From: Methanobacteriota archaeon
GTDB taxonomy: Archaea; Thermoplasmatota; Thermoplasmata; SG8-5; JACRNV01
Reading direction: 5' to 3'
Length of the DNA: 64,000 bases
Assembly: GCA_016214785.1 (NCBI GenBank)
Contig: JACRNV010000056.1
Span: 6,843-70,842 of the forward strand
The position numbers and the translations under genes are program-made. The notes beneath the pieces were generated by a model. That model made no database searches. It worked only from the letters and a program-made list of their open reading frames with translations, and had not been told where the DNA came from. Positions 7,323-43,852 of the stretch are shown piece after piece (position 1 is the stretch's first letter; each line of letters starts with the position of its first letter).

Positions 7323-7377
7323 GGTGACAAGATGACATCCATATCATTTCTCAGCAAGGTTGGACGGGGGTGCAACG

Positions 7378-16602: not shown

Positions 16603-17718
16603 CTAGAATAGCCCGAAGTATTTCGCCGCTACTATCCCGCCAATGACGATGGCTACGACCGCTATTGTAGTCCCTATCTTCAGCCAGCTGTACGGCGCCT
16701 CTCCCTGGACTTTCCCGGTTTGGCCGTTGACCATGAACCTGAAGACCTTCGCACCGTACTGGTAGGACGCCACGTACGCCGGCAGCAGCAGGTGCTTCCA
16801 CTTGATGTCGCTGAAGTCCGTGCTCACGTTCAGGTCGCGCTGCGTGTCCCCGTCCAGCAGCCGCGAGCACTCGCCCCGCTCGCTCTGCTGCATCTCGCCC
16901 CTTGCACTCTGCCAGCAGTCCCTGGGGTCGATGCTGTAGGCCTCGGCCTTGTACCCCGAGAGGTAGTCGTGCTTGTAAGGGACGAGCCCGCCCTTGAGGT
17001 TGTACGGGTAGATGCTCTGCAGGATCTCTCTCGGCAGGCCCTTCGAGGCGTTTATCAGGGCGTCGTCGTAGAAGGCGCTGTGCGTGCCCGAGCGGTACTC
17101 CCAGCGTATCTTGCGCACCTGGCGCGACCGGCGCACCTGCCTCCCGTTCTCGTACGCGGTGTAGTGCTCCGTCTCATAGTAATAGTGCCCAGCATAGCCG
17201 CTCCAGCGCGAGAATGCATTGGCGTCGAAGGTGAAATGGGGCGCGTACAGGCCGTCGATCTGCGCCAGCGCCGCCCGCCTCTTGAGGTCGCTCGGGCGGA
17301 ACCACAGGCCGCGCAGCCAGCCCTGGAAGAGCTGGATGGCCTTGTCCTTTCCGACCACGAAAGGCACGAGGCTCTCGGGCATGACCATCCCCGGCACCGG
17401 CGGCGCCTCGACCACCACCGGGGAGTCGCAGAACGCGCACTTCGTCGCCATCTCCCCCTTCGCCAGGGACGTGACGGCCCCGCACCTGTCGCACTTGAAG
17501 TGGCGGCTCTCTGCCCCGAAGCCCTGCGCTGCCGTGTATGGCACCGGCTCGAGCTCGGCTATGTCATGCTCGACGATGGGCTTGGCAACGGGGGCGATGG
17601 CCTGCTCGGTGCCACAGTGGGGGCACTTCAGATTTGTGGTACCGGGCTCGTAGTTGAGCGTCGAGCCGCAGCTGCCGCATTTGAATGCCAGCTCCCTGAC
17701 CTCGCCCTGCTCAGGCAT
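16603..17718 (-). CDS. Double zinc-ribbon protein with C-terminal transmembrane anchor (last gene of a 4-gene operon)
   Basis: N-terminal FKCGSCGS…KCPHCGT and FKCDRCGA…KCAFCDS ribbons. C-terminal LKIGTTIAVVAIVIGGIVAA TM. Start is 3 nt after the upstream stop. Confidence 0.7.
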   Translation of the reverse strand: MPEQGEVRELAFKCGSCGSTLNYEPGTTNLKCPHCGTEQAIAPVAKPIVEHDIAELEPVPYTAAQGFGAESRHFKCDRCGAVTSLAKGEMATKCAFCDSPVVVEAPPVPGMVMPESLVPFVVGKDKAIQLFQGWLRGLWFRPSDLKRRAALAQIDGLYAPHFTFDANAFSRWSGYAGHYYYETEHYTAYENGRQVRRSRQVRKIRWEYRSGTHSAFYDDALINASKGLPREILQSIYPYNLKGGLVPYKHDYLSGYKAEAYSIDPRDCWQSARGEMQQSERGECSRLLDGDTQRDLNVSTDFSDIKWKHLLLPAYVASYQYGAKVFRFMVNGQTGKVQGEAPYSWLKIGTTIAVVAIVIGGIVAAKYFGLF

Positions 17719-17721
17719 GGC

Positions 17722-18750
17722 TCACTGCACCGCTGTGCCGCACTGGCCGCAGAATTTGACGCCTGGCTGCAGTGCCGTGCCGCACTTGGCGCACGCCGCC
17801 GCGGCCTGCTTCGTCCCGCAGGAGCCGCAGAAGGCCTGGCCCATAGGTATCGGCGCCTGGCATTTGACGCACGGCCTCGTCGCCGCTGCCGCGGCTACCT
17901 GCGGCTGCGCCTGCCCCGGCTGCTGCATCGCCTGGCTCATCTGCCATCCCATGCCTATGCCCGCGCCCACGCCCACGCCCGCGGCGGCCGCGCCGCCGGA
18001 CGGGTTGTTGGCCGCGTCGCGCATCGCCTCCCCGGTCTGGTACTGCATGTACGTCGTCCCGGTGATGTTCATCGATGCGCGCTTGTCCACTGCCTTCTGC
18101 ACTTCCTCGGGCATGGTTATGTAAATGCCCGAGAGCTTCTGGACCTCAATTCCAAATGGGGCGAAATGCGGCTTGGACTTCTCGAGGACTATCTGCTCGA
18201 TCTCGTTCAGGTTCGCCGGCAGGTCGACGATGCTCATGCCCCTGTCCTTGAGCTCGCCCAGCGCGTCGAAAATCTGCAGGACTATCTGCTCCTTGATGCG
18301 CTCCTCGACCTGCGGGCCGGAGATGAGGCCCTCGGTGCCCACGAACTGGCTGATGAAGTTCGCCGGCTCCTTTATCCTCCACCTGGCCTCGCCGAAGAGC
18401 CTCAGGTTCACGATGCCGAAGTCCTTGTCCCTGAAGACGTACGGCTGCTTGCTCCCGTACTTGAAGTCGAAGGGCCTCTTCTGGAGATAGTACACCTCGG
18501 CCTGCTGTTCCACCCCACTTAGAGCCTTGAGCAGCCACCCGTAGATGGGCGCGTTCTGCGAGGTGAGCGCGTACCTGTCCGGCCGGTCGATGTAAGACAG
18601 CGCCTTGCCGTCCCTGTAGAATACGGCGAATTCGTCCTCGCGCACGACGATGTTGTCGTTCCAGCGGATGTTGCGCGGGACCTTCCACATGATGTTCCCG
18701 CGCTTGAACCCCTCGTCCCAGATTATCGTCGTCGAACCGAGCAGCGACAT
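17722..18750 (-). CDS. SPFH/band-7 (stomatin/prohibitin-like) domain protein with C-terminal double zinc ribbon (COG4260-like)
   Basis: 342 aa. SPFH core (…RDKDFGIVNLRLFGEARWRI…). Gly/Ala/Gln-rich linker. C-terminal …CVKCQAPIPMGQAFCGSCGT…CAKCGTALQPGVKFCGQCGT. Confidence 0.75.
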   Translation of the reverse strand: MSLLGSTTIIWDEGFKRGNIMWKVPRNIRWNDNIVVREDEFAVFYRDGKALSYIDRPDRYALTSQNAPIYGWLLKALSGVEQQAEVYYLQKRPFDFKYGSKQPYVFRDKDFGIVNLRLFGEARWRIKEPANFISQFVGTEGLISGPQVEERIKEQIVLQIFDALGELKDRGMSIVDLPANLNEIEQIVLEKSKPHFAPFGIEVQKLSGIYITMPEEVQKAVDKRASMNITGTTYMQYQTGEAMRDAANNPSGGAAAAGVGVGAGIGMGWQMSQAMQQPGQAQPQVAAAAATRPCVKCQAPIPMGQAFCGSCGTKQAAAACAKCGTALQPGVKFCGQCGTAVQ

Positions 18751-19271
18751 CAGGGCGCCTCCGTGTTGGTGATGTACGCCATCCTGCGCTTGAAGGCCGT
18801 CCTCAGAGCCTGCAGCGACGTCGAGAGGTTCCTAGCGAGGGGCATGGCCTGGTCCGTCGCCCCCGCGAGCTGCTCGACCTGCCCGCCGAGCGCGCCTATG
18901 CCGTCCAGGAGCTGCAAATCGTAGTTGTAGAGGATGTTGAGCTCCGACTCCTCGACCCTTATCGCAGGCGAGAAACCAGAGTACCCCTGCTCGGCGTGCC
19001 TTATCATACCCTCGAGCTCCTGCGCCTCGAAGATGGCGCGCCCGAGCGGCTCAAGGGCCTTGACCTGGTAGTTGTCCGTGAGCGCCTGCCGCACCTCCTC
19101 CATGCGGCTGCGCGCGAGCTTGAGCCTGTCCGCGACCTGGATGCGCAGGATGCTGTCCGCCTGGCGCAGGTCCTCGCGCTTCCTGTAGCCCGAGAAGCCC
19201 GGTATCAGAAGCTGTATCCGCTTCAGCAGTCCCCTGTCCTCCTCGACCCTCTGCCTTATGTCGACCATCTT
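18750..19271 (-). CDS. Hypothetical soluble coiled-coil protein (operon gene 2)
   Basis: Start MVDIRQRVEED (ATG 19269-19271), 173 aa. Its stop overlaps the SPFH gene start (ATGA). No family recognised. Confidence 0.5.
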   Translation of the reverse strand, partial: KMVDIRQRVEEDRGLLKRIQLLIPGFSGYRKREDLRQADSILRIQVADRLKLARSRMEEVRQALTDNYQVKALEPLGRAIFEAQELEGMIRHAEQGYSGFSPAIRVEESELNILYNYDLQLLDGIGALGGQVEQLAGATDQAMPLARNLSTSLQALRTAFKRRMAYITNTEAP

Positions 19272-19618
19272 TTCACCCCTCTGAAACGCGTGAACAGCAG
19301 CCAAATTCCAATGATGATTATGACAATCGGGATTATGAGCCCCCAGGTGACGGGGATGTAGCCCATCGCGGCGACGAGCATGATGGTGCCGACGAAGACG
19401 AGCACCGTCCCCCAAAAGAACCTCCGCGCGATGAGGAGCCATATGCCCAGCAGGAGCAGCAGAAGCGGCAGTATCACCGTTATTGGCACGACCAGAATTC
19501 CCACCTCGTTCAGGAGCCAGAGCGCGCCGACTATCAGCAGCGCTATCCCCCAGAAGACGCCGCCCCTGTGGGTCAGCACGTCGCTCGGGCCTTTGTACCC
19601 CGTTTCGTCATCAGCCAT
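19256..19618 (-). CDS. Small 4-TM membrane protein (operon gene 1)
   Basis: Start MADDETGYKGPS (ATG 19616-19618). Four hydrophobic helices (GIALLIVGALWLL, LPLLLLLLGIWLLIA, VLVFVGTIMLVAAMG, IIPIVIIIIGIWLLF). Overlaps the downstream gene by 16 nt. Confidence 0.55.
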   Translation of the reverse strand: MADDETGYKGPSDVLTHRGGVFWGIALLIVGALWLLNEVGILVVPITVILPLLLLLLGIWLLIARRFFWGTVLVFVGTIMLVAAMGYIPVTWGLIIPIVIIIIGIWLLFTRFRGVKRWST

Positions 19619-19802
19619 TGAAGATGGTAGCGCCATTCCGAATAAAAATCTATCGATGGGATTCCCTGGGTATTCCCCATTCACCGCACATTTATTATAG
19701 TAGGAGCGCTGATAGGCAGTTTGGACAAAAGGAACAACGAGACGGCCTGGCATTTGGCCATGATCCTCTTCGTTAGTTGCATGTCAAAAGAGAGATGATA
19801 GG

Positions 19803-21795: not shown

Positions 21796-24700
21796 CTACT
21801 CCAAACGTGCCCTGCGCCTGCGGCTGAAGGCTATGCCAACCGAGACCATGATGAAAAGCATCGGCGCCGCCACGCCGGAGAACTCGGGGGCGTAGTAGAC
21901 GTAGGGGCCAGCCTCAGCAGCAGCGCCATTTCCTGGCGGCACTGTTTCGCTTGGAGCTTGGGCGATCCACCAGTAAGTGCCGCTCGCTGGAAGCGGAGTG
22001 GATGGTGTCCAAGTACCATCTACTGTAGAGTCAGTTCCCCAGTAAGTCCATGTAGCGCCATTATCGTTTGAACGATAGATATAGACTTGTCCAGGATATC
22101 CTGTCCATTGGTACGTGATGTCAGGATAAGCATTAGTAGAGCCACCCGAATTATTTGTGCCGGTGGCAAGCGCGGTGTCGTCCGCAAGCAAGTAGATACA
22201 CTTTGAGTAACCATATGTGTAGAACTTTTGCGCAGGGTTCGCGGAGCCATTCCAACACCATTTCTGTCTCAATGCATAATACCCACTACCCGGAAATGTT
22301 GTATCGTTGTATTGCCACGTAGCGTTCGCATTCTTGGTCATATCGCCTAGATATGTCCCTAAATTCGTTGGGTCAATCGGATTGGCGCTGTACCATACGC
22401 CATAGCCATAGTCCATCCATGATTGCTCGATGCCATGGTAGGGAGCAGAGACATTGCCCACTCCGATAAGGGCCCATGTCTTGTTGCACCCCCAATTGAT
22501 TGGGGTGTGTATCATCTCGAGGACAACGCTACCCATGAAATCAGAGGCTGCGTTCGACATTGCCTGTTCTGTCATTGCGCTGTAGTTGTAGCCATCGCTC
22601 GAGTTCGTGTAGAATACCTCGGTGCACTGCACTACGTAGTCGCCCGGGTTCCAGACAGCCCAGCGATTACCAATGTCTGCCGAAACCCTTGAACGGTACG
22701 GCGGTGTGCCTGCCACGTCGCTCCTGTTCCTCCATGTCTGCGGGAAGTTGTCATTTGGAGGGACGCCTGGGACTGATGAGTACCCCATGAAACAAACGGT
22801 TTCGGTGAAGGGATTGCCTGTTGACCATGCACCTTTTGTAACATCCCATGTGTATGTTATTCCGTTCGCAACGTCGTCGGCCGTGTTTGGCAATGCGTCT
22901 GGTCCAACCAGGACGTATCTTGTTCCGATGCCATTAGTACCGTTCATCGAATCGTATATCTGATTCGAAATCGTGTGTGCAGGAGCATTTACCACCGGCG
23001 GGTTGTCCTGCCTCGTCCCCGTCGCCCTCGCCACCGCCCCTATCGCCGCCGCATCGTCCCTTATCCCCGCCCAGTCCGTGGTCTCGATGTAGAGCTGGAT
23101 GCCCGCGCCGCTGCTGCCTATCTGCGCGAACGGCACGCCGGCCTCGAGCTGGTTGCCCCCCTTCTCGGCCTGGATGTCTGCGATGAAGCTCATCCCTGGG
23201 TATGAGAGGAGCTGGCGGGACGTGACCTTTCCTCCGTAGCCCTTTATCTGGATGCAGCAGTCGGCGTTTATCCCGCCGATGGGAGCGCCCTGGTTGGCCG
23301 CGCTGTCTATGTAGATGCGCGTGACGTCCTCGCCAGTTAACCTTGGAGAGTAAACCGTAGTCACATTGGTTGTCACATTGGTCGTGCCGTTCGTGGTCGC
23401 GTTCGTCGTAGCGTTGGACGGCGGCGCTGGCACCGACCTCACTCTCATGACCGGCGAGAAGCCGCCCTCGAGCGCCCTGCCCGCGGAGTTGAAGCGCACG
23501 TACGCATAGAGGCTCCCCGAGTCCGTCGTCCCCGCGCGCTCGACGACGTCGACGTTCGGGTCGGCGGCGTCGGCCGGGTCCGAGGCCTTGGTGACGCCGT
23601 TCCAATCGGCGAAGGCGCCGTCTATGGATATGCCTGCCGGTGCAGCGCGCACGTACGCCGCCAGGGGCTCGCCTTCGATCGAGCTTGGCCCGCTGGCGCT
23701 CACCGACGCGACGCCGGCCTTCACCAGCGTGCCGTCGTTGAGGTTCGCTATCTGCCCTATGACCGTGAGGTTGTTTCCCGTCCCCGCGCGCAGCGTCATG
23801 CCGGTGCCGAGGCCCGACACCGTCGTCGATGGGACCCCCGCGCTGCTCATCTGGATGCTGTTGACCGTCACATCCCTGCCGACGGCCATCAGGCTCAGCG
23901 TCGCGAGGTTGTCCGAGCTCAGGACGCCGTTCGTCCCCAGCGGGCTTTGCGTCACCACGAGGGCGCCGTTCGCGCCGTCGGCTATCGGCGCGCACATCTC
24001 GCCTGTGTTGTTGTCGCCCGCGCTGGCGAACCTCGCCCTGTAGCTGCCCGGCGTCAGGGTCGTCCCGAGGAAGGAGCCGAACTCCATTCTCGTACCGGAC
24101 GCCTTGGCCTTGCTCGACGATACGTGCGAGAGGGCGCTCCAGTTCAGCTGGTCTGCGCCCGTGAAGCGGCCGGCCTCGACGCTGAGCGTCCCGCCCCTCC
24201 AGCCCCAGACCTCGATGGCGTAGTTGGCCCCGATGCCGCCGATGGAGTATCCTGTGTTCGCGTTCGAATCGGAATCTATGAAGACCAGGAACCTGTCGGC
24301 CTGGAGCCGGTCGAAGATGTCCCCGCGCGTGCTGACGTAGCCGTAGACGGTATCTCCCTCCGAGGCTATGGAGAAGTCCCTGATGTCCAGCGCCGCGTCC
24401 TGCGCCGTCCTGATGTCCTGGTAGACGAGCTTCGTCGCCCAGTCGTCGAACCCGCCGTCCACGTCGACGAACTTCGGCGCGGCCGGAGGCGGGACCATGA
24501 GGACGTAAATCCCTGGCAGTATGACGATGAATGCGACTATCAACAGGACCCACAGGACCTTCGGCGGCAGCGTCCTTCGCCTCTGCTGGAGCCTCCTGCC
24601 GGACGGCGATATTGCATCGCCGTTCGTCAGGCCGTTGGTCAGGCCGTTCGTGAGGCCGTTGACCCACCCGTTGGTGCGCCCGGCGCCGTTGGTGACGCCG

Positions 24701-25272
24701 TTCGTCCTCCCATTGGTCTGGCCCCTGCCGTTCGTGAGCCCGCTGGCCATGCCGTTCGTCCGGCCGCCGCGGCCGTTCGTCAGGCCGTTGGTGCGCCCTA
24801 GCCCGTTCGTCCTGCCGCGGTCGCGCTTCCCCGTCTCCTTCTTCTGCTCCTCGATTGGCGCGCCGCTCGTGAGTCCCTCGCTTTTCTCGTCCCCCTCCAC
24901 CTCCTCTATCAGGCTGTAGAGGTCCTCGATTGCCATGGCCGCCTTCTCCTCGGAGGACATGGCTTCGAGCTTCTCCGGGGGCATGTCCCGGGCCGGCGCG
25001 CGGGGCCTCATGCCCTTCGATTCGCCTTCTATGTCCGGGTAAACGCTCTTGATCTCGTCTATTAATGAATCGACGTCGGCCTCCGTAGGCTCCGACGTGT
25101 CAATGAAGGTGGTGAGCTGGTCAAGCTGTGCTTCCGCCTCCTCGGCCTCGGACCTGGGCCTCGGCGGCACTTCCGGCGTGGCCCGCTCGGCCCCTAGCCC
25201 GGGCTCGGGCGCCTCCCCCTGCAATAGGGCTTCCTCTACCTCCTGCCGCTTTCTCCTGCTACGCTTGCTCAT
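21796..25272 (-). CDS. Giant (1,159 aa) membrane-anchored surface glycoprotein with N-terminal acidic/'TNG'-repeat region, internal TM, large sequon-rich ectodomain and PEF-CTERM-like C-terminal anchor
   Basis: Start MSKRSRRKRQ at ATG 25270-25272, downstream of an AT-rich promoter. (L/R)TNG repeats. TM VLWVLLIVAFIVILPGIYVLMV. >40 N-x-S/T sequons. C-terminus …YYAPEFSGVAAPMLFIMVSVGIAFSRRRRARLE is a PEF/PGF-CTERM-like tripartite signal. The 577-aa ORF in another frame is GC noise. Confidence 0.75.
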   Translation of the reverse strand: MSKRSRRKRQEVEEALLQGEAPEPGLGAERATPEVPPRPRSEAEEAEAQLDQLTTFIDTSEPTEADVDSLIDEIKSVYPDIEGESKGMRPRAPARDMPPEKLEAMSSEEKAAMAIEDLYSLIEEVEGDEKSEGLTSGAPIEEQKKETGKRDRGRTNGLGRTNGLTNGRGGRTNGMASGLTNGRGQTNGRTNGVTNGAGRTNGWVNGLTNGLTNGLTNGDAISPSGRRLQQRRRTLPPKVLWVLLIVAFIVILPGIYVLMVPPPAAPKFVDVDGGFDDWATKLVYQDIRTAQDAALDIRDFSIASEGDTVYGYVSTRGDIFDRLQADRFLVFIDSDSNANTGYSIGGIGANYAIEVWGWRGGTLSVEAGRFTGADQLNWSALSHVSSSKAKASGTRMEFGSFLGTTLTPGSYRARFASAGDNNTGEMCAPIADGANGALVVTQSPLGTNGVLSSDNLATLSLMAVGRDVTVNSIQMSSAGVPSTTVSGLGTGMTLRAGTGNNLTVIGQIANLNDGTLVKAGVASVSASGPSSIEGEPLAAYVRAAPAGISIDGAFADWNGVTKASDPADAADPNVDVVERAGTTDSGSLYAYVRFNSAGRALEGGFSPVMRVRSVPAPPSNATTNATTNGTTNVTTNVTTVYSPRLTGEDVTRIYIDSAANQGAPIGGINADCCIQIKGYGGKVTSRQLLSYPGMSFIADIQAEKGGNQLEAGVPFAQIGSSGAGIQLYIETTDWAGIRDDAAAIGAVARATGTRQDNPPVVNAPAHTISNQIYDSMNGTNGIGTRYVLVGPDALPNTADDVANGITYTWDVTKGAWSTGNPFTETVCFMGYSSVPGVPPNDNFPQTWRNRSDVAGTPPYRSRVSADIGNRWAVWNPGDYVVQCTEVFYTNSSDGYNYSAMTEQAMSNAASDFMGSVVLEMIHTPINWGCNKTWALIGVGNVSAPYHGIEQSWMDYGYGVWYSANPIDPTNLGTYLGDMTKNANATWQYNDTTFPGSGYYALRQKWCWNGSANPAQKFYTYGYSKCIYLLADDTALATGTNNSGGSTNAYPDITYQWTGYPGQVYIYRSNDNGATWTYWGTDSTVDGTWTPSTPLPASGTYWWIAQAPSETVPPGNGAAAEAGPYVYYAPEFSGVAAPMLFIMVSVGIAFSRRRRARLE
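24594..24849. repeat. Tandem 12/15-nt repeats (ccgttcgt/ccgttggt + cagg/gagg…) encoding the (G/R/L)TNG peptide repeats
   Basis: …ccgttcgtcaggccgttggtcaggccgttcgtgaggccgttgacccacccgttggtgcgccc… gives ~18 units, read on the minus strand as NG(L/R)TNG. Confidence 0.7.
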
Positions 25273-25299
25273 TTTGCAAAGTCCTCTCTGATAGAAAGA

Positions 25300-25345
25300 G
25301 TAGTAGAACGCTCCCTTTATAATATTATTTCTGTACCATATATAT
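25300..25345 (-). promoter_or_regulatory. AT-rich promoter (TATA/BRE-like) for the giant surface protein gene
   Basis: ttataatattatttctgtaccatatatatattatc lies 30-70 nt upstream of ATG 25272 on the minus strand, in an otherwise 63% GC context. Confidence 0.4.
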
Positions 25346-25346
25346 A

Positions 25347-25748
25347 TTATCTGACTATGAGCACCGGCCTGTCGGAGTGCCTGGCCACGCGCTCGGCCAC
25401 GCTGCCGATGGTGAAGCGCCCTATCTTGCTCGTGCCCGTGGAGCCTATGACGACGTAGCTGCACTTCATCTCCGACGCGAACTTCAGGATTTCTTCCACT
25501 ACGTTCCCTTCCCTGAGCACGCCCATGGCCGTCACGCCGCGCTGCTTCATGAGGTTGATGGCGTCGTTCACGACCTCCTGGGCCTTGGCCTTCGTCACGT
25601 CCGGCGGCAGGCCGGCTATCTCCCCGGGCAGGGCCGCCGGTATCACGTAGAGGACCATGATGTCCTCGTTCTCCGCGCAGACGGCGATGGCGCGCTGCAG
25701 AGCCTTTTTAGCGTCCTCGGAGCCGTCGTAAGCGACTAGAACTGTCAT
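25347..25748 (-). CDS. Universal stress protein (UspA family)
   Basis: Start MTVLVAYDGSEDAKKAL. C-terminal ATP-binding motif …VVIGSTGTSKIGRFTIGSVAERV. 133 aa. Confidence 0.85.
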   Translation of the reverse strand: MTVLVAYDGSEDAKKALQRAIAVCAENEDIMVLYVIPAALPGEIAGLPPDVTKAKAQEVVNDAINLMKQRGVTAMGVLREGNVVEEILKFASEMKCSYVVIGSTGTSKIGRFTIGSVAERVARHSDRPVLIVR

Positions 25749-26284
25749 TGCCCCTCTCCCTTCCTCTCTTCCTTCTCCCTCCTCTCCATGCGTTCCAGGC
25801 TCCTCTGCATCTTTCGCGCGAGGTAGACGAAATAGATGACGAACGGCACGAAGATGAAGACGGAGAACATCACGTCCAGGTGCGTGAGCTGGAGCAATGG
25901 CGTCTCCTTCACCAGAATCATCTTCGGCGCGGTCGCGTTCGTCCCTCCGTCCGCGTCCGAGCAAGCGAAGGAGTAGGTGTTCATCCCGCCCTTCAGGCGC
26001 GTGGAGTAGAAGTAGGCCTTGCCGTCCGAGAAGTTGGAGTCCGCGGCGTCGAACTCCTGCATGTCGTGGGAGTTGCCGTTTATCATGACCCTGACGCTCT
26101 GCGCCGACGCGTTCCCCTGGTAGGTGACCATGAAGACGTAGACGGCGCTGTCGTCCGAGGAGGTCGATGAGACGCCGCCGTTCAGCAGGCGCGGGTCGTC
26201 GGCGCGCGCGGCCGGCGGCATCAAGAGTGCGACCGCGACCAATGCCAGGGTGAATAGCGCCAACATCCTTGCGAGTTTCATCAA
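25745..26284 (-). CDS. Secreted/membrane protein (signal peptide, C-terminal TM, charged tail), co-transcribed with the UspA-family gene
   Basis: MMKLARMLALFTLALVAVALLMPPAARA signal; …VMFSVFIFVPFVIYFVYLARK TM. Its stop overlaps the UspA-family start (ATGA). Confidence 0.6.
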   Translation of the reverse strand: MMKLARMLALFTLALVAVALLMPPAARADDPRLLNGGVSSTSSDDSAVYVFMVTYQGNASAQSVRVMINGNSHDMQEFDAADSNFSDGKAYFYSTRLKGGMNTYSFACSDADGGTNATAPKMILVKETPLLQLTHLDVMFSVFIFVPFVIYFVYLARKMQRSLERMERREKEERKGEGQ

Positions 26285-26394
26285 CGAGCCAATGCCGGGA
26301 GGGAATAAAAGGGTTTGGGGCGGGGTGGATTCATTGGCTGTCTAATCTGGCACTTCCGCAGGTTTATATACCCGAATTAGACTATCCAAATACG

Positions 26395-26691
26395 ATGAAG
26401 GCAAGGGGATTCCAAGCAATTAAATCCACGATAGCGAGGCGCAAGCCGATGCTGGCCAAGAGGTATAAGGTGCGGCGGATCGGCGTTTTCGGCTCATGGG
26501 CGAACAGTAGGGCGAGGCAAAACAGCGACGTCGACGTTCTCGTCGAGCTGTCGGAGCCCATCGGCCTGGAACTGATGGCACTGAAGGAGTACCTCGAAAA
26601 GGCGTTGGGGCGCGAGGTCGACCTTGTCACCGTGAAGGCGCTCAAGCCCGCAATGCGCAAGGGGATTCTGGCGGAGGTCGTTTACGTTTGA
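26395..26691 (+). CDS. Minimal nucleotidyltransferase (MNT) antitoxin of an MNT/HepT pair
   Basis: GS-X9-DxD: …IGVFGSWANSRARQNSDVDVLVEL. TATA-like tttatata ~30 nt upstream. Its stop overlaps the HepT-like start. Confidence 0.85.
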   Translation: MKARGFQAIKSTIARRKPMLAKRYKVRRIGVFGSWANSRARQNSDVDVLVELSEPIGLELMALKEYLEKALGREVDLVTVKALKPAMRKGILAEVVYV

Positions 26692-27035
26692 TAAGGCGCA
26701 CGTCCCAGTACCTGGCGGATATGCTCGACGCCATCGACAAATGCGCATCCTATACTGACGGGCTCGCGTTCGCGCGCTTTTGCAAGGAAGACATGGCTGT
26801 GGACGCGGTGCTCAGGAACCTGGAAATCCTGGGCGAGGCGGCGCGGAACGTGCCCGCTTCCGCCAGGAGGAGGCATCCCGGCGTTCCGTGGTCCCTTCTC
26901 GTAGGCCTGAGGGACGTCGTAATCCACCAATACCACGGCGTCGACCTGGAGAATATCTGGAAGATAGTCAGGGAGGACCTCCCCGCCATACGAAGGCCGC
27001 TGCGTAAGGCTCTCGAAGAGGCCAAGGGGAATTAG
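26688..27035 (+). CDS. HepT-like (DUF86) RNase toxin
   Basis: R-x4-HxY motif (RDVVIHQY); 115 aa; TTG/ATG start overlapping the MNT-type stop. Confidence 0.85.
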   Translation: MIRRTSQYLADMLDAIDKCASYTDGLAFARFCKEDMAVDAVLRNLEILGEAARNVPASARRRHPGVPWSLLVGLRDVVIHQYHGVDLENIWKIVREDLPAIRRPLRKALEEAKGN

Positions 27036-27160
27036 GGGGCTGCATCATTTGGGCAAGGACGACACGGTCACGATCATCGACTACGGCATGGGCAACATCG
27101 GCTCCGGGAACATATAGTTAAAGAAATGCGGTTCCATCGAGAACATGGTCGAGCGCATGG

Positions 27161-27456: not shown

Positions 27457-28698
27457 ATGAAAGATATTTATGGTTCGTTGTTCGCCGAATGGAAGGGGAG
27501 GCGCAGGGAGGGCCTGCTGCCCAGGGACAACCCGCTGTCCAAGTACGTGGGGTTCAAACCGAGGAAGATAATCGCCGCCACTGGGCTCAGGCGCGTGGGA
27601 AAGACGTGCATGCTCTACCAGCTCGCCGGGCCGGAGCGGGAGAAGATACTTTACATCAACTTCGACGACGAGCGGGTCCCGGCCCGGACCGAGTTCCTCA
27701 CGGGCTTGGTGCCAGCCATCAAGGACATGCTGGACGTGAGGCCGGGGACGCTCTACCTCGATGAGGTCCACCGCCTGCCGGACTGGAGCCGCTGGCTCAG
27801 GCGAGCATACGACGAGGGCGAGTTCGATATCTTCGTGACGGGCTCGGGGGCGCAGCTGTCCAGCGAGGAGATACCCTACGAGCTGAGGGGCCGGTGCCTG
27901 GAAGTGCGAGTCCGCCCGCTGGCTTACGCCGAGTTCCTCGGTTTCAAGGGCGTCGGCGCGACGACCGCGCTCCTTGAGGAGTACCTGCTGTATGGCGGGA
28001 TGCCCGAGGTCGTCCTGGCCAGCGGGGACGTGAAGCTCGACTTGCTGCGGCAGTACTACGCCACGGTGATAAGGCGGGACATCATCGAGCGGTTCAGGAT
28101 CAGGAACCCCGAGGCGCTGAAGGCCATGCTGAAGCTGCTGGCGAACTCGACGCAGTTCTCGTTCACCAAGCTCTACAACACTATACGTAGCATGCAGATG
28201 AGGGTCGGCAAGGCGGCGGTCATCAGGTACATGTCCCATATCGAGTCATCGTACCTGCTGCGCTCCGTCCCGATCCTGTCGCCGAAGGTCAAGGACCAGA
28301 TGCGCCACCCGAGGAAGGTCTACTTCGAGGACACGGGGTTTGTTTCCGCGCTGTCTACACGCTTTTCCAAGAACTACGGAAGGCTTTGCGAGAACGCGGT
28401 GGCGAACCGGCTCTCGGCGCGGGGCTATACGCTCCACTACTGGAAGTCCACGGATGGGCGCGAGGTCGACTTCGCCGTACGAACCGACGGCGGCGTGGAG
28501 GCCCTGGTCCAGGCGTGCTGGGAGCCCTGGGAGGACTCGACCCTGAAACGGGAGATGTCGGCGCTCGTCACCGCGTCATCGGAGCTGTCTTGCGATGAGC
28601 TGATGGTGGTCACCCGGGACCGCGCCGGGGTCGAGGAGCACCGGGGGAAGAGGATAAGGCTCTTGCGTCTCGGCGACTGGCTGCTCGGCGAGGCCTGA
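27457..28698 (+). CDS. AAA+ ATPase of the COG1373 / DUF4143 family
   Basis: Walker A (TGLRRVGKT), Walker B (LYLDEVH), C-terminal DUF4143-like region. AT-rich promoter upstream. Confidence 0.85.
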   Translation: MKDIYGSLFAEWKGRRREGLLPRDNPLSKYVGFKPRKIIAATGLRRVGKTCMLYQLAGPEREKILYINFDDERVPARTEFLTGLVPAIKDMLDVRPGTLYLDEVHRLPDWSRWLRRAYDEGEFDIFVTGSGAQLSSEEIPYELRGRCLEVRVRPLAYAEFLGFKGVGATTALLEEYLLYGGMPEVVLASGDVKLDLLRQYYATVIRRDIIERFRIRNPEALKAMLKLLANSTQFSFTKLYNTIRSMQMRVGKAAVIRYMSHIESSYLLRSVPILSPKVKDQMRHPRKVYFEDTGFVSALSTRFSKNYGRLCENAVANRLSARGYTLHYWKSTDGREVDFAVRTDGGVEALVQACWEPWEDSTLKREMSALVTASSELSCDELMVVTRDRAGVEEHRGKRIRLLRLGDWLLGEA

Positions 28699-31444: not shown

Positions 31445-32413
31445 CTAGACGTTCTTGGCTTGTATCCAGATGGTCACGCCGGTATAAACGACGTTCTTAG
31501 CGAGGCCCGCGGGTAGAACAAGGTTCATGTAGTGTGTTTGATTTAGCATATATCCGGTAGTGCTTGAATACCAAGTCGCGTTATTTCCAGGGCTCGCACT
31601 GGCATTTAACAACTGTGTAGCTGTGCTTTGACCGGCATTTTTTACCCAAATAGTTGGATCAACTGTTGGCACTCCCCACGCTTCGCCAGAACCGCCTAAG
31701 AAAAAGCCAGTATAACTTGCATTGAGTTGATAAGCATCGTTTGAGGTAACAACCGTATAGAATGTAGATGACACATTAGATTCTGGCGCGCCGGTCCATG
31801 CAAAGTTTGTTGTCCCTGTAGAAATCGTTGCGTACGTAATTTCTACAAAGGATGCCATGCCTAAATAGCTTATTGACGTGGTTCCGATTCCACCAGATAA
31901 ATCCTCTGAGGTCCCATTTATTATCCAAATTAGCACACCATTTGAATCGATTGCAGTCTTATTTAAAATAATATTAAATGACAAGACCTTCGTTGTGGTG
32001 CTAACATCAACTTCTGTAACACCATTTAAATAAACACCTGATGTCGGTGCGAACTGGCTTGGAATATCATTTACAGAATCATATCCAAATTTATACGAAC
32101 CACTTGGGTTGTTGGTCGCATAGCCAGATGCAGGGAATCTCAATGTAAAATTAGATTGAAAAACATCATCCGTCCCATCAGCATCATTAACACTGATATT
32201 GACGTAGAAATTTGTATTCGGAATAATAGTACTGATCAGAGTCCAACCACTATTCAACACTGTAATGTTCGCCGTCGGTGTCGCGTTTTGAACTGTCACC
32301 GATGCTGTCCCCTCGGCTCGTACCGACCCCATCGCTGCAAAGGCAAGTAACCCCACAAGGAGTATTACCCCTATTTTTCCTTTCATATAGAACCTCAGCT
32401 TATTAGAAAGCAA
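31445..32413 (-). CDS. Secreted Thr/Ser/Asn-rich protein (signal peptide), first gene of the low-GC island
   Basis: MKGKIGVILLVGLLAFAAMGSVRA signal; many N-x-S/T sequons; GC ~42%. Confidence 0.6.
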   Translation of the reverse strand: MLSNKLRFYMKGKIGVILLVGLLAFAAMGSVRAEGTASVTVQNATPTANITVLNSGWTLISTIIPNTNFYVNISVNDADGTDDVFQSNFTLRFPASGYATNNPSGSYKFGYDSVNDIPSQFAPTSGVYLNGVTEVDVSTTTKVLSFNIILNKTAIDSNGVLIWIINGTSEDLSGGIGTTSISYLGMASFVEITYATISTGTTNFAWTGAPESNVSSTFYTVVTSNDAYQLNASYTGFFLGGSGEAWGVPTVDPTIWVKNAGQSTATQLLNASASPGNNATWYSSTTGYMLNQTHYMNLVLPAGLAKNVVYTGVTIWIQAKNV

Positions 32414-32449
32414 TATCTTCTATAATAATTTATGTGATTTGAGATATTG

Positions 32450-33064
32450 TCAACTATTCGGGACTTTTTGGGCAACATATCTGATCAGGTTCAACAGTTT
32501 TCTTCTCCCTAACCGTATGTCAATCTCGGCCTTTTCCGCAGGGGTCCTCCCGTCCAATCTCATATGGGGGTTCACGAAGTTATGAATGATGGGTCGGAGG
32601 TCGAGAAATGCCTCTGCTCCTTCATCGCTGCCAAAACCCCGCATAGTTTTTGTCCGGTCATTGATGTCACCATTGTAACGCTCGATAGGATTGTTGTTGT
32701 GTTCCAGGCCGTATTTTTTGCATGCGATAGGCACACCGAATTGCAACTTCGCAACTCGAAAGAACAGTTTGTTGAATGCAGCCTTATATAGCCCGAATTT
32801 ATCACTTACGAACGTGACGCGTTTTCTTTTCTTTACTGGCTTACATTTTTCTTTGCGATAGATTTCGAGTATTTGATCGTAGCATGTTCTCTTTATCTGC
32901 ATCAGGAATTCCACGCAGTTCTCGAAGGTACGTGCTTGGACGTACAGATGCGCCAAAATGTACTTTGTTTTGGAATCTATCGCATTCAGGTCATATCTGC
33001 CTTCTTTCCCCACCTTCACGTATTTTTCGCCATAGTGGATTTGTCCCTTGATGATGGGGTTCAC
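32450..33064 (-). CDS. IS6-family transposase, DDE catalytic fragment (OrfB), +1 frame relative to OrfA
   Basis: GTG start 14 nt after the OrfA stop; alignable to IS26 transposase residues ~70-230, including the C-terminal …RGFGSDEGAEAFLDLRPIIHNF…. The frame break sits at the T6A4 homopolymer (33081-33090). Confidence 0.7.
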   Translation of the reverse strand: MNPIIKGQIHYGEKYVKVGKEGRYDLNAIDSKTKYILAHLYVQARTFENCVEFLMQIKRTCYDQILEIYRKEKCKPVKKRKRVTFVSDKFGLYKAAFNKLFFRVAKLQFGVPIACKKYGLEHNNNPIERYNGDINDRTKTMRGFGSDEGAEAFLDLRPIIHNFVNPHMRLDGRTPAEKAEIDIRLGRRKLLNLIRYVAQKVPNS

Positions 33065-33077
33065 ATTGGCCGAGAGC

Positions 33078-33377
33078 CTATTTTAAAAAATCGGAGTACT
33101 TCCGAACCCATTTTGCAATCGCCCACCGAGAAACCCGAACTCCATCGTGTTGCCACAGGTGATTCTTCACCTTTGATAAAGAGAGGCCATCGTTGTGCAT
33201 GTGTATGGCCCGCACAATGATGGCTGGCTTATTTCTCATGCGCTCAAACCCGTCAGATTTGATAAAGCGTCTCTGGCACCTTTTGCACATGCATCTTTGT
33301 TTCGAGCCAGACGTGTTCTTTCTCCTTCCTCGCTTTATCACCTCTTTCGATCCGCAGTATGGGCATGCCAAACGCAT
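33078..33377 (-). CDS. IS6-family transposase, N-terminal zinc-finger/HTH fragment (OrfA)
   Basis: CPYCGS…C…CKRC zinc finger plus HTH resembling the IS26 transposase N-terminus. Ends in TTTTTTAAAATAG. Confidence 0.7.
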   Translation of the reverse strand: MRLACPYCGSKEVIKRGRRKNTSGSKQRCMCKRCQRRFIKSDGFERMRNKPAIIVRAIHMHNDGLSLSKVKNHLWQHDGVRVSRWAIAKWVRKYSDFLK

Positions 33378-33484
33378 TTTATCGCCACGGGTGCATTATC
33401 GCAAGAGGTATTTATAAGTCCCGTTAAGTGGACAATATTCACATACACCAAAATATTTATCTTAATATGCTGTCTGGTTTTTAG

Positions 33485-35002
33485 ATGCCTGGCATAAAAC
33501 GAAAGCTTGTTCGTAATACAATCGCAAATGCAATAATGAAATTTTGGGGTTATATTATTGGATTTTTGATGTTCCCTTTCATAGTCGGATATGTGGGTGT
33601 AGAGGATTACGGATTATACCTTCTAGTGGGTGCTTTCGTAGGCTATTTTGGGTTGCTTGACTTTGGCGTCAGCGGAGCACTAGTGAAATATGTCGCAGAA
33701 TATAACGCGAAAAATGAAAAAGAAACCATTAATAAAGTAATCAATTCAACTTTTGTTTTTTATACAATAATTGGTGTAGTAATTTGTGCCTTCGTATTAT
33801 TACTTGGAACTTATTATGTAGATTTTTTTAAGATCGAGAGTGGAGACCTCTGGAAAGCAAGACTGATTGCTTATCTAATGGCAATAGGAGCATTGACTAG
33901 TTGGCCAATGAGAAGCTTTAGTACTTCTTTAGATGGCTTGCAACGATATGATCTGAGCGCCATTATCAATTTTATAACGGTAAACATTAACGCCATTGTT
34001 ACTGTAACGCTACTTCTACGTGGTTTCGGAATCGTAGAAATTATTTTTTCAGGGATTGTAATTGGGGCTCTCAGCCAAATAATAATAGTTCTAATAATGA
34101 AAAAGCTATTACCTTACGTTGAGTTGAAAAAGTCGTATATTGAATTTAGTACCCTAAAAAAGGTTTTTACATTTAGTAGTGTTTTATTTATCTCACAGCT
34201 CATCGGAATTCTAATGTTTGGGTTTGATCGTCTTTTATTAGGCATATTCGTATCTGTAGCTGCGATTACTTATTACGCTGTAGCTAGGAAGTTATTTGAT
34301 ATCGTCGCTACTGTAACGTATATTCCTCAGAGCGCGTTACTTCCTGCGGCTACAGAGCTTGAAGCTTTGAATAAAAAAGAGTCGTCAACAAAATTGTTGA
34401 TTAAAACCAGTAAATATTATAGTGCTGTCTGTCTTTCTACGACTGTATTGATTTTTTTTCTAGCCGAGCCAATTATTCTTTTTTGGATGGGAAGTGAATT
34501 TATTGGCATGGCCATTATGACTCAGGTCTTTATATCCTATGGTTTTTTTACCTCGTTTGGAGGTGTTGCAAATAGCTTTCTGTTAGTTAAAGAAAAGTAC
34601 AAGGTGATTCTTTTAATCCTTTTAATTATTTCCATCGCAAACCTTATTCTAAGCATTATCTTAGTTCAATACATAGGAATTATGGGTGTTGTCCTTGGAA
34701 CAACAATTCCAAATATCGTTACAGCACCTATTTTGATACCATATATGCTTAAGCAGCTTGATATAGATATTAAAAGATACCTAAAGAGTATTGTCCCGCA
34801 AACGTACATCCCTGCATTAATCATGTCTGTTTCCATTTATCTCATAATGAATTTTATTACTATTTCATCGATAGTGATTTTAGGTTCAGTTGCGATAATT
34901 AGCTTACTAATCTATTACCTAATATTTTACTTTATAGGACTTGACAAAGAAGAAAAAAATGATTTATTTCGGTTAATAACCTTTAAAAAGAATGTTGTTT
35001 AA
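33485..35002 (+). CDS. Wzx-like polysaccharide/oligosaccharide flippase (MOP superfamily, Polysacc_synt)
   Basis: 505 aa, ~14 TM helices, typical N-terminal …NTIANAIMKFWGYIIGFLMFPFIVGYVG…YGLY… motif region. GC ~33%. Confidence 0.85.
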   Translation: MPGIKRKLVRNTIANAIMKFWGYIIGFLMFPFIVGYVGVEDYGLYLLVGAFVGYFGLLDFGVSGALVKYVAEYNAKNEKETINKVINSTFVFYTIIGVVICAFVLLLGTYYVDFFKIESGDLWKARLIAYLMAIGALTSWPMRSFSTSLDGLQRYDLSAIINFITVNINAIVTVTLLLRGFGIVEIIFSGIVIGALSQIIIVLIMKKLLPYVELKKSYIEFSTLKKVFTFSSVLFISQLIGILMFGFDRLLLGIFVSVAAITYYAVARKLFDIVATVTYIPQSALLPAATELEALNKKESSTKLLIKTSKYYSAVCLSTTVLIFFLAEPIILFWMGSEFIGMAIMTQVFISYGFFTSFGGVANSFLLVKEKYKVILLILLIISIANLILSIILVQYIGIMGVVLGTTIPNIVTAPILIPYMLKQLDIDIKRYLKSIVPQTYIPALIMSVSIYLIMNFITISSIVILGSVAIISLLIYYLIFYFIGLDKEEKNDLFRLITFKKNVV

Positions 35003-35014
35003 TATTTTTTTAGG

Positions 35015-36226
35015 TTAAGAGTATTTTCGTATTAACTCATTATATTTTACGGTGAAATCCTCCATATTTTTATACCAATTACCTATTTCAAGTGCGCGTT
35101 CACGACATCTCATTCCAAACAACAGTCTTTCATCTTTTTTATTAAGAAGGAATGTAATTTTTTCTGCAAGATCATTAGGATCAGAAGGCCGAAAGGTATA
35201 ACCATTATACTTATTTTCGACTGCAAGTAATAAGGCACCTGGTCTATTCGCGGCCACTATGGAAACACCGCAACTCATTGCCTCAAGCAATGATACGCCG
35301 ATCCCTCCACCGCCTACTTGAATCGGCATAGGATCCACATAGATATCTGAGCTAGCGAAATATTTTGGTATATCTTGATGCGCAAGGTGTCCAATAAAAA
35401 TAACTCGATTTTTCATACCTAGCGATTCGCTCAATCTGATTAAATTATCCTTTTCAGGGCCATCTCCTATAATTAATAATGTAATATAATCATGTTTTGA
35501 AATTATTTTAGCAAAAGCCTTGAGTAATGTCTCAGTGTCATAGGCCTTCTTTAATGCATTCGCTGAAGTTATTATTATTCGATTAGGATTTTTACAAATC
35601 TCCATTCGTAATTCTTCGGAACATTGGGAAGGGTTAAAAAAATCCGTTTCAACACCCCAAATCTGTATGAATATTTTACTTGTTGGACAACCAAGTTCGA
35701 TAAGTCGGTCGCGTCCGGGGATGTCTCCAGTATGTACTAAATCTGCTTTTTTAAACATCTCAATATATTCTTTGTGTTGTTTTGAACCGATAATAGTTGA
35801 GGCTATATCCCCGCCCCATGCACTCAATATTAGTGGATGACGATTCACTTTACATGCCCAATATCCGAATTTACGTAAATAATGACCATGTACAATATCT
35901 GGTTTTATCCTATGTACTAAATATGTAATTTTAACAAATGTGAATAATATATCAAGAGCCGTTATAATTTTCCGAAATAACTTTTTTCTACATTTTTCCC
36001 AATAAAAATTTAATGTGTGTATATCGTGAAGAATGATATTATTGGGATACACGTATGCACCTGGAAAAACACTTTTAGTAATAACTGGGGATTTGAAACC
36101 TGTTGTAAAAAAAAATAGATGAATTATATGTCCCTTACTAGCAAAATAGTCGCACCACCGTTGAGTGTGAATACTATAGATATCACTAAAGATGCATAAT
36201 GTGAGCCGCACGGGCTTTTTATCCAT
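35015..36226 (-). CDS. GT4-family glycosyltransferase
   Basis: C-terminal E..S.G..EAMSCGVSIVA…NGYTF motif set. Start trimmed to MDKKPVRLTLC. Confidence 0.8.
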   Translation of the reverse strand: MDKKPVRLTLCIFSDIYSIHTQRWCDYFASKGHIIHLFFFTTGFKSPVITKSVFPGAYVYPNNIILHDIHTLNFYWEKCRKKLFRKIITALDILFTFVKITYLVHRIKPDIVHGHYLRKFGYWACKVNRHPLILSAWGGDIASTIIGSKQHKEYIEMFKKADLVHTGDIPGRDRLIELGCPTSKIFIQIWGVETDFFNPSQCSEELRMEICKNPNRIIITSANALKKAYDTETLLKAFAKIISKHDYITLLIIGDGPEKDNLIRLSESLGMKNRVIFIGHLAHQDIPKYFASSDIYVDPMPIQVGGGGIGVSLLEAMSCGVSIVAANRPGALLLAVENKYNGYTFRPSDPNDLAEKITFLLNKKDERLLFGMRCRERALEIGNWYKNMEDFTVKYNELIRKYS

Positions 36227-36354
36227 CTCTGATTTTGAATCGTTGTTTTTTATGATCATATAGCAACTAGAAAACGTTATAAAGTGGGGATTAATAGACT
36301 TTGCCATAGGTTTAATATATGGACATCCTCTCATTTCAATCATCGGACAAGAAA

Positions 36355-37398
36355 ATGACTGGTGGTCATAGACCATACAATATAGATAAAGCGCTGGAAT
36401 CGCTTGGCGATAAAGTTACGAGGGTTGTGAATTGGCGCGATTGGGGAATAGACCGTAAGTTGGTGAAGAGACTTACACCAACTCAAATTAATAATAGGTT
36501 AAAACTAAAAAAGTTTCTTGATTTACAAATAAAAAATAAAATCATCCTTTTCCATGGAATCCAAAATGAAAAACTATTGGGCAAGTTTTCCAACTACAGA
36601 TTTCCAATAGTTCTTGATTATAGAGATGACCCCATTCTTCAAGCAGAAATGAATGGCATTCCGATTAATGTAGATAAGGCTAAAAAATTAATTGAATACA
36701 ATTTCAAATCATCTGACATAATCCTCTTTCCTTCAAAGACTCTTATGGATTATTACAGCGAATATAAAGAAAAAGCAATCGTCGTTATGAACGCTTCTGA
36801 CCCTAGTCATTTTAAGTATTCGAAAAATCCACTGAATGATAAAGCAATTTGTCTCTATCCACCAATGCCATGCTTTTTTTATCCGGACGTGCTGGATGCT
36901 AGTACCCTAGTTAGAAACCATATAAAGAATTTCGAAATATCTATCATGAACCTCCAAGCAAAGTATCGAAAATTTTATGGTGATTTTGATAAGACAATAC
37001 ACGTAAAGTATGAGCATCCTTGGATATCGTCCTTCAACTCGATGCCATATAGCGAAATAGGTAAGTTCATTAGTCAATTCACCATTGGTATTATCGCATA
37101 TAAGAAATTCACCTACGCGAACCTGGGTACACCTTTAAAACTCTTTGATTTAATGGCATGTGGACGACCAATCGTCGCCATGCGATGCAAAGAAATTGAA
37201 AAAATCGTTAGCGATGCAAACTGCGGGTTACTTTGTGATTTTACTAAAGAAGATTTAGCAGAAAAAATGATAAATTTACTAGAAAATTCTGATCTGATAA
37301 TAAAAATGGGAGAAAACGGAAGGAGAGCCGTCGAAAAGAAGCATAGCTGGATTCATCGCGCAAAAGTAATTCAAGATGAGATATTGAAATTAACTTGA
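36355..37398 (+). CDS. Glycosyltransferase (GT1/GT4-like C-terminal domain)
   Basis: …KLFDLMACGRPIVA…CGLLCD… C-terminal domain; low GC. Start uncertain (36319/36355). Confidence 0.6.
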   Translation: MTGGHRPYNIDKALESLGDKVTRVVNWRDWGIDRKLVKRLTPTQINNRLKLKKFLDLQIKNKIILFHGIQNEKLLGKFSNYRFPIVLDYRDDPILQAEMNGIPINVDKAKKLIEYNFKSSDIILFPSKTLMDYYSEYKEKAIVVMNASDPSHFKYSKNPLNDKAICLYPPMPCFFYPDVLDASTLVRNHIKNFEISIMNLQAKYRKFYGDFDKTIHVKYEHPWISSFNSMPYSEIGKFISQFTIGIIAYKKFTYANLGTPLKLFDLMACGRPIVAMRCKEIEKIVSDANCGLLCDFTKEDLAEKMINLLENSDLIIKMGENGRRAVEKKHSWIHRAKVIQDEILKLT

Positions 37399-38466: not shown

Positions 38467-38578
38467 CAGAGAAAAATTATATTGACCGGAGAGACCGGCT
38501 ATTATATTCTCAATGTGCGTTTCAACGCCACCGATTAGTGGTTTAAATTTATCATAGTATAAACAAACCCGTTTAATT

Positions 38579-40811: not shown

Positions 40812-40834
40812 TTAGAGAATAAAAATGTAATATT

Positions 40835-43839: not shown

Positions 43840-43852
43840 GTTTTTTTCGCAA

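Follow-up and report, generated by a model that had tools for sequence, protein, structure and literature searches.

How an archaeal protein that combines a block of Thr-Asn-Gly repeats, an internal transmembrane (TM) segment and a C-terminus resembling a sorting signal is built into the cell envelope, and whether its repeats serve to vary it, are the questions raised by a gene on the minus strand of contig JACRNV010000056.1 (Thermoplasmatota, assembly GCA_016214785.1). The gene lies in a 64-kb stretch of this contig, analysed as a whole and called the window here. A sequence-only reading had presented its product as a surface protein of unusual design, whose slippage-prone repeats could mediate phase or length variation.

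We propose, with moderate confidence, that the gene encodes a membrane-spanning, N-glycosylated surface protein with an anchor-like segment at each end, a cytoplasmic repeat tether, a tail processed in the manner of PEF-CTERM proteins and a role in the cell coat. The N-terminus would stay in the cytoplasm, with an acidic segment followed by the repeat tract and then by a polybasic stretch, and a single signal-anchor helix would cross the membrane. Outside, a stalk modelled as three domains (CBM9/DOMON-like, Ig-like and again CBM9/DOMON-like) would bear a lineage-specific head of ~380 amino acids (aa), stalk and head being exported and N-glycosylated. The PEF motif, the helix and the Arg tail would probably be cut by an archaeosortase and replaced with a lipid anchor, by analogy with PGF/PEF-CTERM proteins, and the mature protein would have a membrane attachment at either end. 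The repeat tract may serve in the cytoplasm as a tether or docking site that is flexible and carries positive charge, and whose motif is selected and whose length drifts. As a component of a glycoprotein coat, the protein may bind glycans or neighbouring coat proteins through its stalk and owe its specificity to its head.

The design that had been called unusual is not confined to this gene but turned out to be the common plan of a family that numbers hundreds of proteins. Among 5.8 billion proteins searched, 262 relatives were found, those with a named source being from Thermoplasmatota, Thermoplasmata or Methanomassiliicoccales metagenome-assembled genomes (MAGs), and they align to residues ~130–760 of the query, which comprise the repeats, the TM helix and three β-domains (D1, D2 and D3, ~500 residues past the TM helix). 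In an exhaustive profile search of 1.84 billion representatives, 835 matches were obtained at E ≤ 1e-30, 1385 at E ≤ 1e-10 and 3225 at E ≤ 1e-3, and a scan seeded with a 10-sequence alignment recovered 80 genomic loci from GTDB species genomes, all 80 belonging to Thermoplasmatota MAGs. These genomes often encode several paralogues, and some have three to five family copies, sometimes in tandem. Most relatives are labelled 'hypothetical protein' at NCBI, and their precomputed Pfam matches, where located, fall outside the conserved module. As far as sequence comparison goes, the repeats, the TM helix and the three β-domains are the conserved module of a large, undescribed and unnamed family, seen so far in Thermoplasmatota only, and the gene studied here is an ordinary member of it, with an orphan head domain. 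Clustering of 2430 open reading frames (ORFs) from the 80 loci revealed no partner gene common to the whole family; the only synteny was local and involved housekeeping genes, identified by eye as PUA-like, TPR, RtcB, HD and OTCase.

At eight loci with close relatives (L002–L005 and four more), the next gene downstream encodes a SHOCT-like membrane protein of ~340 aa (e.g., L003, 4783–5793) with an acidic N-terminus, two TM helices and repeated motifs (…KIEHLTKVYAQGK…); inspection of the adjacent ORFs showed no counterpart beside the gene in the window.

Two hydrophobic helices were found in the protein, at aa 242–260 and aa 1131–1149, in agreement with the internal and C-terminal membrane segments described before. 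The first of them appears in the AlphaFold 2 (AF2) model as a helix at model residues 108–130 (aa 237–259), where 10-residue blocks over model residues 111–130 average a predicted local distance difference test (pLDDT) score of 92–93. We recognized no cleavable N-terminal signal peptide, as the first hydrophobic segment comes only after ~240 acidic, repeat-bearing or basic residues. Paralogues have as many as ~700 residues of cytoplasmic-type domains ahead of this segment (KaiC-like ATPase, DUF7504, MEDS, TPR and zinc-ribbon domains, all N-terminal of the repeats), and Ice-binding-like, LTD (lamin-tail), β-helix, FG-GAP and CBM9 domains are found in relatives C-terminal of the module. Since a long non-hydrophobic or cytoplasmic-type N-terminus precedes it, helix 1 is best read as a signal anchor. 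The segment of ~15 aa between the repeats and the TM helix contains family-wide a mean of 3.6 K/R vs 0.6 D/E, and N-x-S/T sequons are enriched only after TM helix 1. Because the K/R-rich side is expected to face inwards (positive-inside rule) and the paralogues have cytoplasmic-type domains upstream and extracellular-type ones downstream, the N-terminus and the repeats would lie in the cytoplasm and would not be surface-exposed. The acidic character of the N-terminus, also reported before, stands (net charge in Table 1), and this presumably cytoplasmic region is 70% identical to that of the syntenic orthologue L081; most relatives do not have it and start straight at the repeats. The AF2 model covers only aa 130–150 of it, with pLDDT <40. 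Many close relatives begin directly with repeats (e.g., 'MGRGLTNG…'), and for this reason the repeats seem to be the minimal cytoplasmic part of the family proteins.

The ectodomain, of ~870 aa, contains 18 N-x-S/T sequons vs 9.7 ± 2.8 in shuffled sequences, which bears out its description as sequon-dense. With an 85-sequence alignment, AF2 modelled aa 240–750 (TM helix, D1, D2 and D3) at pLDDT >95. D3 matches D1 in BLASTP with E = 8e-8, which identifies it as a duplicate of D1, and both domains carry the family-invariant motifs DGxFxDW and F-I-D-x-D…TGY / G-A-x-Y. In the model, the β-sandwiches are superimposable on CBM9/DOMON structures (PDB 1i82; ethylbenzene dehydrogenase gamma, 2ivf_C; NxrC, 7b04_C) at only 6–13% identity, and the query differs from these in having the domain duplicated around an Ig-like domain. 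The query gave no match to Pfam even at E ≤ 1, so that by sequence it is no member of the CBM9 family (PF06452); in one relative, P0012, a CBM9_1 domain occurs separately, nearer the C-terminus. Positions 1–49 of the 191 of TIGR04145 (Firmicu-CTERM) match aa 548–598 with 32.2 bits and E = 9e-8, below the cut-off of 50. What is shared is the I-D-G-x-F-x-D-W strand region, and Firmicu-CTERM proteins are surface proteins with a C-terminal sorting signal, but the family is bacterial, its C-terminal signal is a different one and about a quarter of the profile was matched.

Five of the 18 sequons form a NATT/NGTT/NVTT run (aa 620–639), which is a loop inside D3 and not an interdomain linker; it has a pLDDT of ~56 and varies among relatives. 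For the head, a word-indexed homologue search with aa 761–1158 found no relative at E ≤ 1e-3, and a local phmmer search with the same segment against 235 family proteins matched P0001 only, over the last ~110 aa. AF2, run with a two-sequence alignment, gave a mean pLDDT of 36 and no usable model of the head, in which an SxDxGxTW (Asp-box-like) motif was spotted by eye near aa 1067. Variable heads on a constant stalk and the multiplicity of the proteins per genome fit a coat or adhesin role.

Elsewhere in the window, positions 32000–45000 constitute a low-GC island (31–41% GC vs ~60% elsewhere) full of glycan-synthesis genes. It includes a Polysacc_synt/MurJ-type flippase (33485–35002), at least four GT4 glycosyltransferases and an FkbM methyltransferase (40002–40811), as well as a 583-aa protein (40835–42586) that matched no family and has ~10 hydrophobic segments or more. 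The island, which lies ~7 kb from the glycoprotein gene, has the look of a surface-glycan cluster acquired by horizontal transfer, and the stretch that contains it is bracketed by two AAA_14 + DUF4143 ATPase genes in opposite orientation (27457–28698, plus strand, and 46529–47794, minus strand).

The C-terminus of the protein shows the tripartite signal of PEF-CTERM/archaeosortase C substrates, and this signal is a property of the family. A PE[FY] motif occurs within the last 60 residues in 91 of 120 relatives, followed by a helix and R/K, and some of the others look truncated. In a curated alignment of 43 tails, the consensus is IPEFxxxxxP-(11 hydrophobic)-RxRRR, with P and E invariant and F present in at least 90%. 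On a profile built from the tails of 42 relatives, with the query left out, the query tail scored 23.8 bits, vs 9.5 bits for the best of 2000 shuffles and 12.5 for the best of 234 other ORF tails of the window. Among the NCBIfam models, TIGR03024 (PEF-CTERM) is the best one for the isolated 45-aa query tail (E = 0.0016, profile positions 2–24 of 25) and the top one for 26 of the 43 family tails, and a relative (P0023) is named PEF-CTERM protein by NCBI. The PEF-CTERM-like tail of the sequence-only reading is thereby upheld; the comparison with PGF- and PEF-CTERM models that it called for yielded TIGR03024 as best fit, at a score below the curated cut-off.

Archaeosortase C (ArtC) is the partner of PEF-CTERM (PMC5244752, PMC9723798). 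Passages of these two papers describe PEF-CTERM proteins as predicted ArtC substrates (Haft et al., 2012, as cited there) and discuss the system in Methanosarcinales and ANME archaea only, whereas the query is from Thermoplasmatota; a literature search on archaeosortase in Thermoplasmatota or Methanomassiliicoccales gave nothing relevant. With PEF-CTERM proteins the family shares P-E-F, a hydrophobic helix of ~18 residues, an Arg-rich tail, glycoprotein-like ectodomains and many paralogues per genome; it differs in an extra conserved Pro (IPEFxxxxxP), and a long cytoplasmic N-terminus and a signal anchor would here replace the cleaved signal peptide. The only experimentally studied model for such a tail is the PGF-CTERM/ArtA system of Haloferax, in which the tail is cleaved and a lipid is attached (PMC6098224). 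The S-layer (surface-layer) glycoprotein of Haloferax volcanii is, as the query is predicted to be, an N-glycosylated surface protein with a motif, a helix and a basic tail (PMC6098224), but it has a PGF motif, a cleaved signal peptide, no cytoplasmic tail and a known lattice, and shares no sequence homology with the query (no Pfam or NCBIfam match).

Concerning other proteases, a rhomboid protease gene was identified by a Pfam scan at one related locus (L007, 20636–21544), ~9 kb downstream of the family gene, and a polytopic ORF of similar size lies ~6 kb downstream at another (L009, 17674–18573). A study on haloarchaea links rhomboids to surface-protein processing (PMC11985538).

Several results weigh against a sortase-processed coat protein with a disordered tether. 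The cut-off of TIGR03024 (23 bits) was reached neither by the whole protein (9.4 bits) nor by the isolated tail (18.6 bits). We found no archaeosortase or exosortase among the polytopic ORFs of the window, and no archaeosortase among ten scanned of the 17 polytopic ORFs flagged in the 80 loci. The query lacks the cleaved N-terminal signal peptide of classical archaeosortase substrates. The resemblance to CBM9 does not go beyond the fold (13% identity, and no match of the query to CBM9 in Pfam), and the disorder of the tether is read from low AF2 confidence (pLDDT <40 across the repeat tract), with which an oligomer- or partner-dependent structure is compatible.

The C-terminal helix could instead be a permanent second TM anchor, in which PEF…P would serve insertion or packing and neither sortase cleavage nor lipidation would take place. 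The tail score under the curated threshold and the lack of an archaeosortase in any of the DNA examined agree with this, as do the family-specific conserved Pro five residues past PEF and the TM-anchored fraction of the Haloferax S-layer glycoprotein that has been discussed (PMC6098224). Nevertheless, we regard a permanent anchor as doubtful, since the invariant P-E and the almost invariant F ahead of a helix and a basic tail reproduce exactly the exosortase/archaeosortase tripartite layout (PMC6098224), the PEF-CTERM model fits best among all NCBIfam models, and the NCBI pipeline itself named one family member after it. Processing by an archaeosortase would remain the preferred fate of the tail.

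On the other side of the membrane, all 121 proteins compared (120 relatives and the query) have an NG-rich cluster just upstream of the TM helix, with a median of 14 NG units per protein (range 4–29) and a median of 14 residues between the last NG unit and the helix. The family repeat unit is G-[L/R]-T-N-G, at a spacing of 4 or 6 residues, with G at −3 in 1625 units and T at −1 in 1364 units, and the tract is composed of G (29%), N (17%), T (15%), L (12%) and R (10%). Such clusters are confined to genes of this family in 1.1 Mb of related DNA and in the window. In the query we counted 13 units ending in NG (12 TNG and 1 VNG), where ~18 TNG copies had been announced, and the distribution of NG dipeptides, 13 in the 69-aa block vs 10 in the remaining 1089 aa, is far from chance. 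The DNA units measure 12, 18, 21 or 24 nucleotides (nt), not 12 or 15 as first given, all of them multiples of 3 and in frame, and the block itself, placed at 24594–24849 by the sequence-only reading, exists within narrower limits (Table 1). When the codons of the T-N-G core were compared between units, silent differences amounted to 33% in the query and 43% in L081, and replacement was seen in only ~5% of comparisons. As silent differences far exceed replacement, the repeat units appear to be old and the peptide to be under purifying selection. Neither the literature, in which nothing relevant on the G-[L/R]-T-N-G motif was found, nor a sequence search of the PDB, with one low-complexity match between a pyridoxal kinase and the repeats and two weaker ones at E > 0.1, offered a precedent. 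A pentapeptide-repeat or RTX-type solenoid was also considered for the tract and rejected, given that the period is 4 or 6, the hydrophobic position misfits and AF2 shows no fold.

It may be asked whether the tract is, rather than a tether, a structured or regulated cytoplasmic module that couples the outer coat to cytoplasmic machinery, either as a turn-rich spiral or solenoid under the membrane or as a docking or phosphorylation tract for KaiC-like ATPase and TPR proteins. This would suit a tetrapeptide very strongly kept across proteins only 25–30% identical elsewhere, the strong depletion of replacement relative to silent changes, the many paralogues in which KaiC-like, DUF7504, MEDS, TPR or zinc-ribbon domains are fused directly upstream of the tract, and the presence of TPR and zinc-ribbon genes in the window. 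We consider it unlikely, because AF2 shows no structure in the tract, because a copy number that ranges as widely as given above and changes between near-identical proteins is easier to understand for a spacer than for a defined fold, and because the simplest family members have only repeats in the cytoplasm. The flexible tether is therefore the reading that we keep.

Two adjacent TPR-rich proteins of ~1033 aa are encoded on the plus strand of the window (51201–54302 and 54302–57400), the second one containing also zinc ribbons and a helix-hairpin-helix; the domain types of this pair recur in family paralogues, where they are fused ahead of the repeats.

It is improbable that the protein is a transmembrane receptor that detects a glycan or small ligand outside the cell with its CBM9/DOMON-like domains and passes a signal to the cytoplasm. 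DOMON/CBM9-type domains are ligand-binding folds, and there are paralogues with cytoplasmic ATPase or MEDS sensory-type domains, but the query has no recognizable cytoplasmic output domain, most of its close relatives have only repeats in the cytoplasm, and a second, C-terminal anchor and a large variable head suit a coat protein or adhesin better.

We come then to the variability of the repeats. The query has 13 units and L081, a metagenomic orthologue with 85% identity just past the repeats and syntenic upstream genes (81% nucleotide identity), has 29, and relatives at least 93% identical after the TM helix differ by 3–8 units (e.g., 28 vs 20, 21 vs 15 and 16 vs 12), although some of these differences among metagenome proteins could be assembly artefacts, which also tells against our reading. 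Copy number evidently changes fast and always in frame. The expectation that the repeat number would differ between relatives was thus borne out, and of the instability claimed for the repeats it is this variation that stands; instability as such was not shown, and the DNA units are degenerate. Tandem Repeats Finder (TRF) aligned only 2–3.5 copies in the block, at 78–90% match, no DNA unit is the same as its neighbour, perfect repetition at period 12 extends over at most 11 nt, and the copies of the longest exact direct repeat (21 nt) do not lie next to each other. Since units are always multiples of three, frameshift ON/OFF switching, and with it the phase variation suggested earlier, is excluded; the length of the tract would drift by in-frame gain and loss of units, with expression not being switched. 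With bacterial simple-sequence contingency loci the gene has in common a short-unit tandem repeat in a surface-protein gene and a copy number that differs between relatives, and differs in that its units are imperfect, multiples of three and silently diverged, and encode a presumably cytoplasmic segment; no homogeneous tandem repeat that alters the frame or the promoter spacing was found.

A slippage-prone contingency locus for phase or antigenic-length variation of a surface-exposed region is accordingly very improbable: it would explain the copy-number differences between close relatives (13 vs 29, and several pairs at least 93% identical) and the short period-12 and period-24 arrays detected by TRF, but not units of 12–24 nt that preclude a frameshift, neighbouring units without identity or longer perfect runs, silent divergence with the peptide kept, a sign that the units are old and selected and not the product of recent slippage, a block on the predicted cytoplasmic side, where antigenic variation makes no sense, or the 100% identity of the sole other assembly with this allele.

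The coordinates of the gene and of the parts of its product are given in Table 1. The ORF reported at first was confirmed, its length being 1158 aa plus the stop codon and not 1,159 aa. Its ATG at 25272 is preceded by a 77-nt AT-rich spacer, beyond which lies a Usp-family gene, and L081 starts at the same place, with upstream synteny kept. A longer version with a GTG start (to 25464) runs into the upstream Usp-family gene. The Logan assembly of SRR12113407, the only other assembly with this allele, carries an identical protein and DNA (100% over 4035 nt), and an Rfam scan around the gene detected a tRNA-Asn only.

Table 1. Features of the gene, its product and its 5' flank (positions are those of the window; residues are those of the 1158-aa protein).
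Feature	Position	Strand	Basis and remarks
Full gene	21796..25272	minus	1158 aa + stop; no interruption (ORF list, translation)
AT-rich intergenic spacer 5' of the ATG, putative archaeal TATA-type promoter	25273..25349	minus	Sequence read directly; upstream gene is Usp-family
Acidic N-terminal region, aa 1–150	24823..25272	minus	Net charge −17; two D[LV]xSLI[DE]E[IV] motifs
Repeat block, 13 G-[L/R]-T-N-G units, aa 151–219	24616..24822	minus	Read from sequence
Basic juxtamembrane segment, aa 220–241 (…GRRLQQRRRTLPPK…)	24550..24615	minus	Read from sequence
Transmembrane helix 1 (predicted signal anchor), aa 242–260	24493..24549	minus	Hydropathy 3.02 over 19 aa
D1, CBM9/DOMON-like β-sandwich, aa ~268–432	23977..24471	minus	AF2 model
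D2, Ig-like β-sandwich, aa ~437–541	23650..23964	minus	AF2 model
D3, second CBM9/DOMON-like sandwich, aa ~547–750	23023..23634	minus	AF2 model
N-x-T-T sequon repeat (NATTNATTNGTTNVTTNVTT), aa 620–639	23356..23415	minus	TRF period-12 arrays at 23360–23415
C-terminal 'head', aa 751–1128	21889..23022	minus	W/Y/T/N/G-rich orphan sequence, 10 sequons
PEF-CTERM-like tripartite tail: PEF (aa 1129–1131), helix 1131–1149, SRRRRARLE	21799..21888	minus	Sequence, profiles

Other parts of the window were noted in passing. Two tandem Kelch/beta-propeller proteins of ~1020–1030 aa, with signal-peptide-like N-terminal starts, are encoded on the plus strand (4221–7322 and 7360–10419); they have a common C-terminus (…GTVGWRCIVPM…TVTFVLEHD) and no PEF tail. 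A membrane-associated gene run on the minus strand (16603–19753) comprises a zinc-ribbon/DUF7130 protein, an SPFH/Band-7 protein with a C-terminal double zinc ribbon, a 230-aa protein with a weak LIMLP_15305 match and a LiaF-TM-like membrane protein. Upstream of the studied gene, a pair of MNT-like nucleotidyltransferase and DUF86 (HEPN-like) genes, identified by eye at 26269–27035, fills ~740 nt in the window vs ~110 nt at L081 (1186–1370). Beside this pair (~27057–27110), a 46-nt stretch, 98% identical to L081, encodes what reads like the N-terminal end of a HisH-like amidotransferase (…IIDYGMGNIGS…) but nothing beyond it, and is therefore probably the remnant of a gene.

How Thermoplasmatota, including gut and sediment Methanomassiliicoccales and many uncultured lineages, construct their surface is poorly understood. 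In two Thermoplasmatales species, cryo-electron tomography shows an unordered protein layer on the exterior in place of an S-layer (PMC12448462), and the query matches no S-layer family of Pfam or NCBIfam. With its hundreds of members, its paralogues, a modelled stalk, swappable heads and a sortase-type tail, the family is a candidate for this unidentified exterior layer. In its furthest-reaching form, which we think rather improbable, the tract would be a new cytoplasmic juxtamembrane module, and the family would be the main coat building block of Thermoplasmatota without an S-layer, stapled at both membrane ends and coupled through the tract to a KaiC-like ATPase/TPR machinery. Asn-Gly is the most deamidation-prone dipeptide and, as a speculative extension, the Asn-Gly sites could time the age or turnover of coat proteins. 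If true, an archaeosortase-type surface protein fused to a conserved repeat tract in the cytoplasm and, in paralogues, to KaiC-like ATPases would make the spectrum of archaeosortase substrates broader than is known so far, and it would offer a handle on the coupling between inside and outside in archaea without a regular S-layer.

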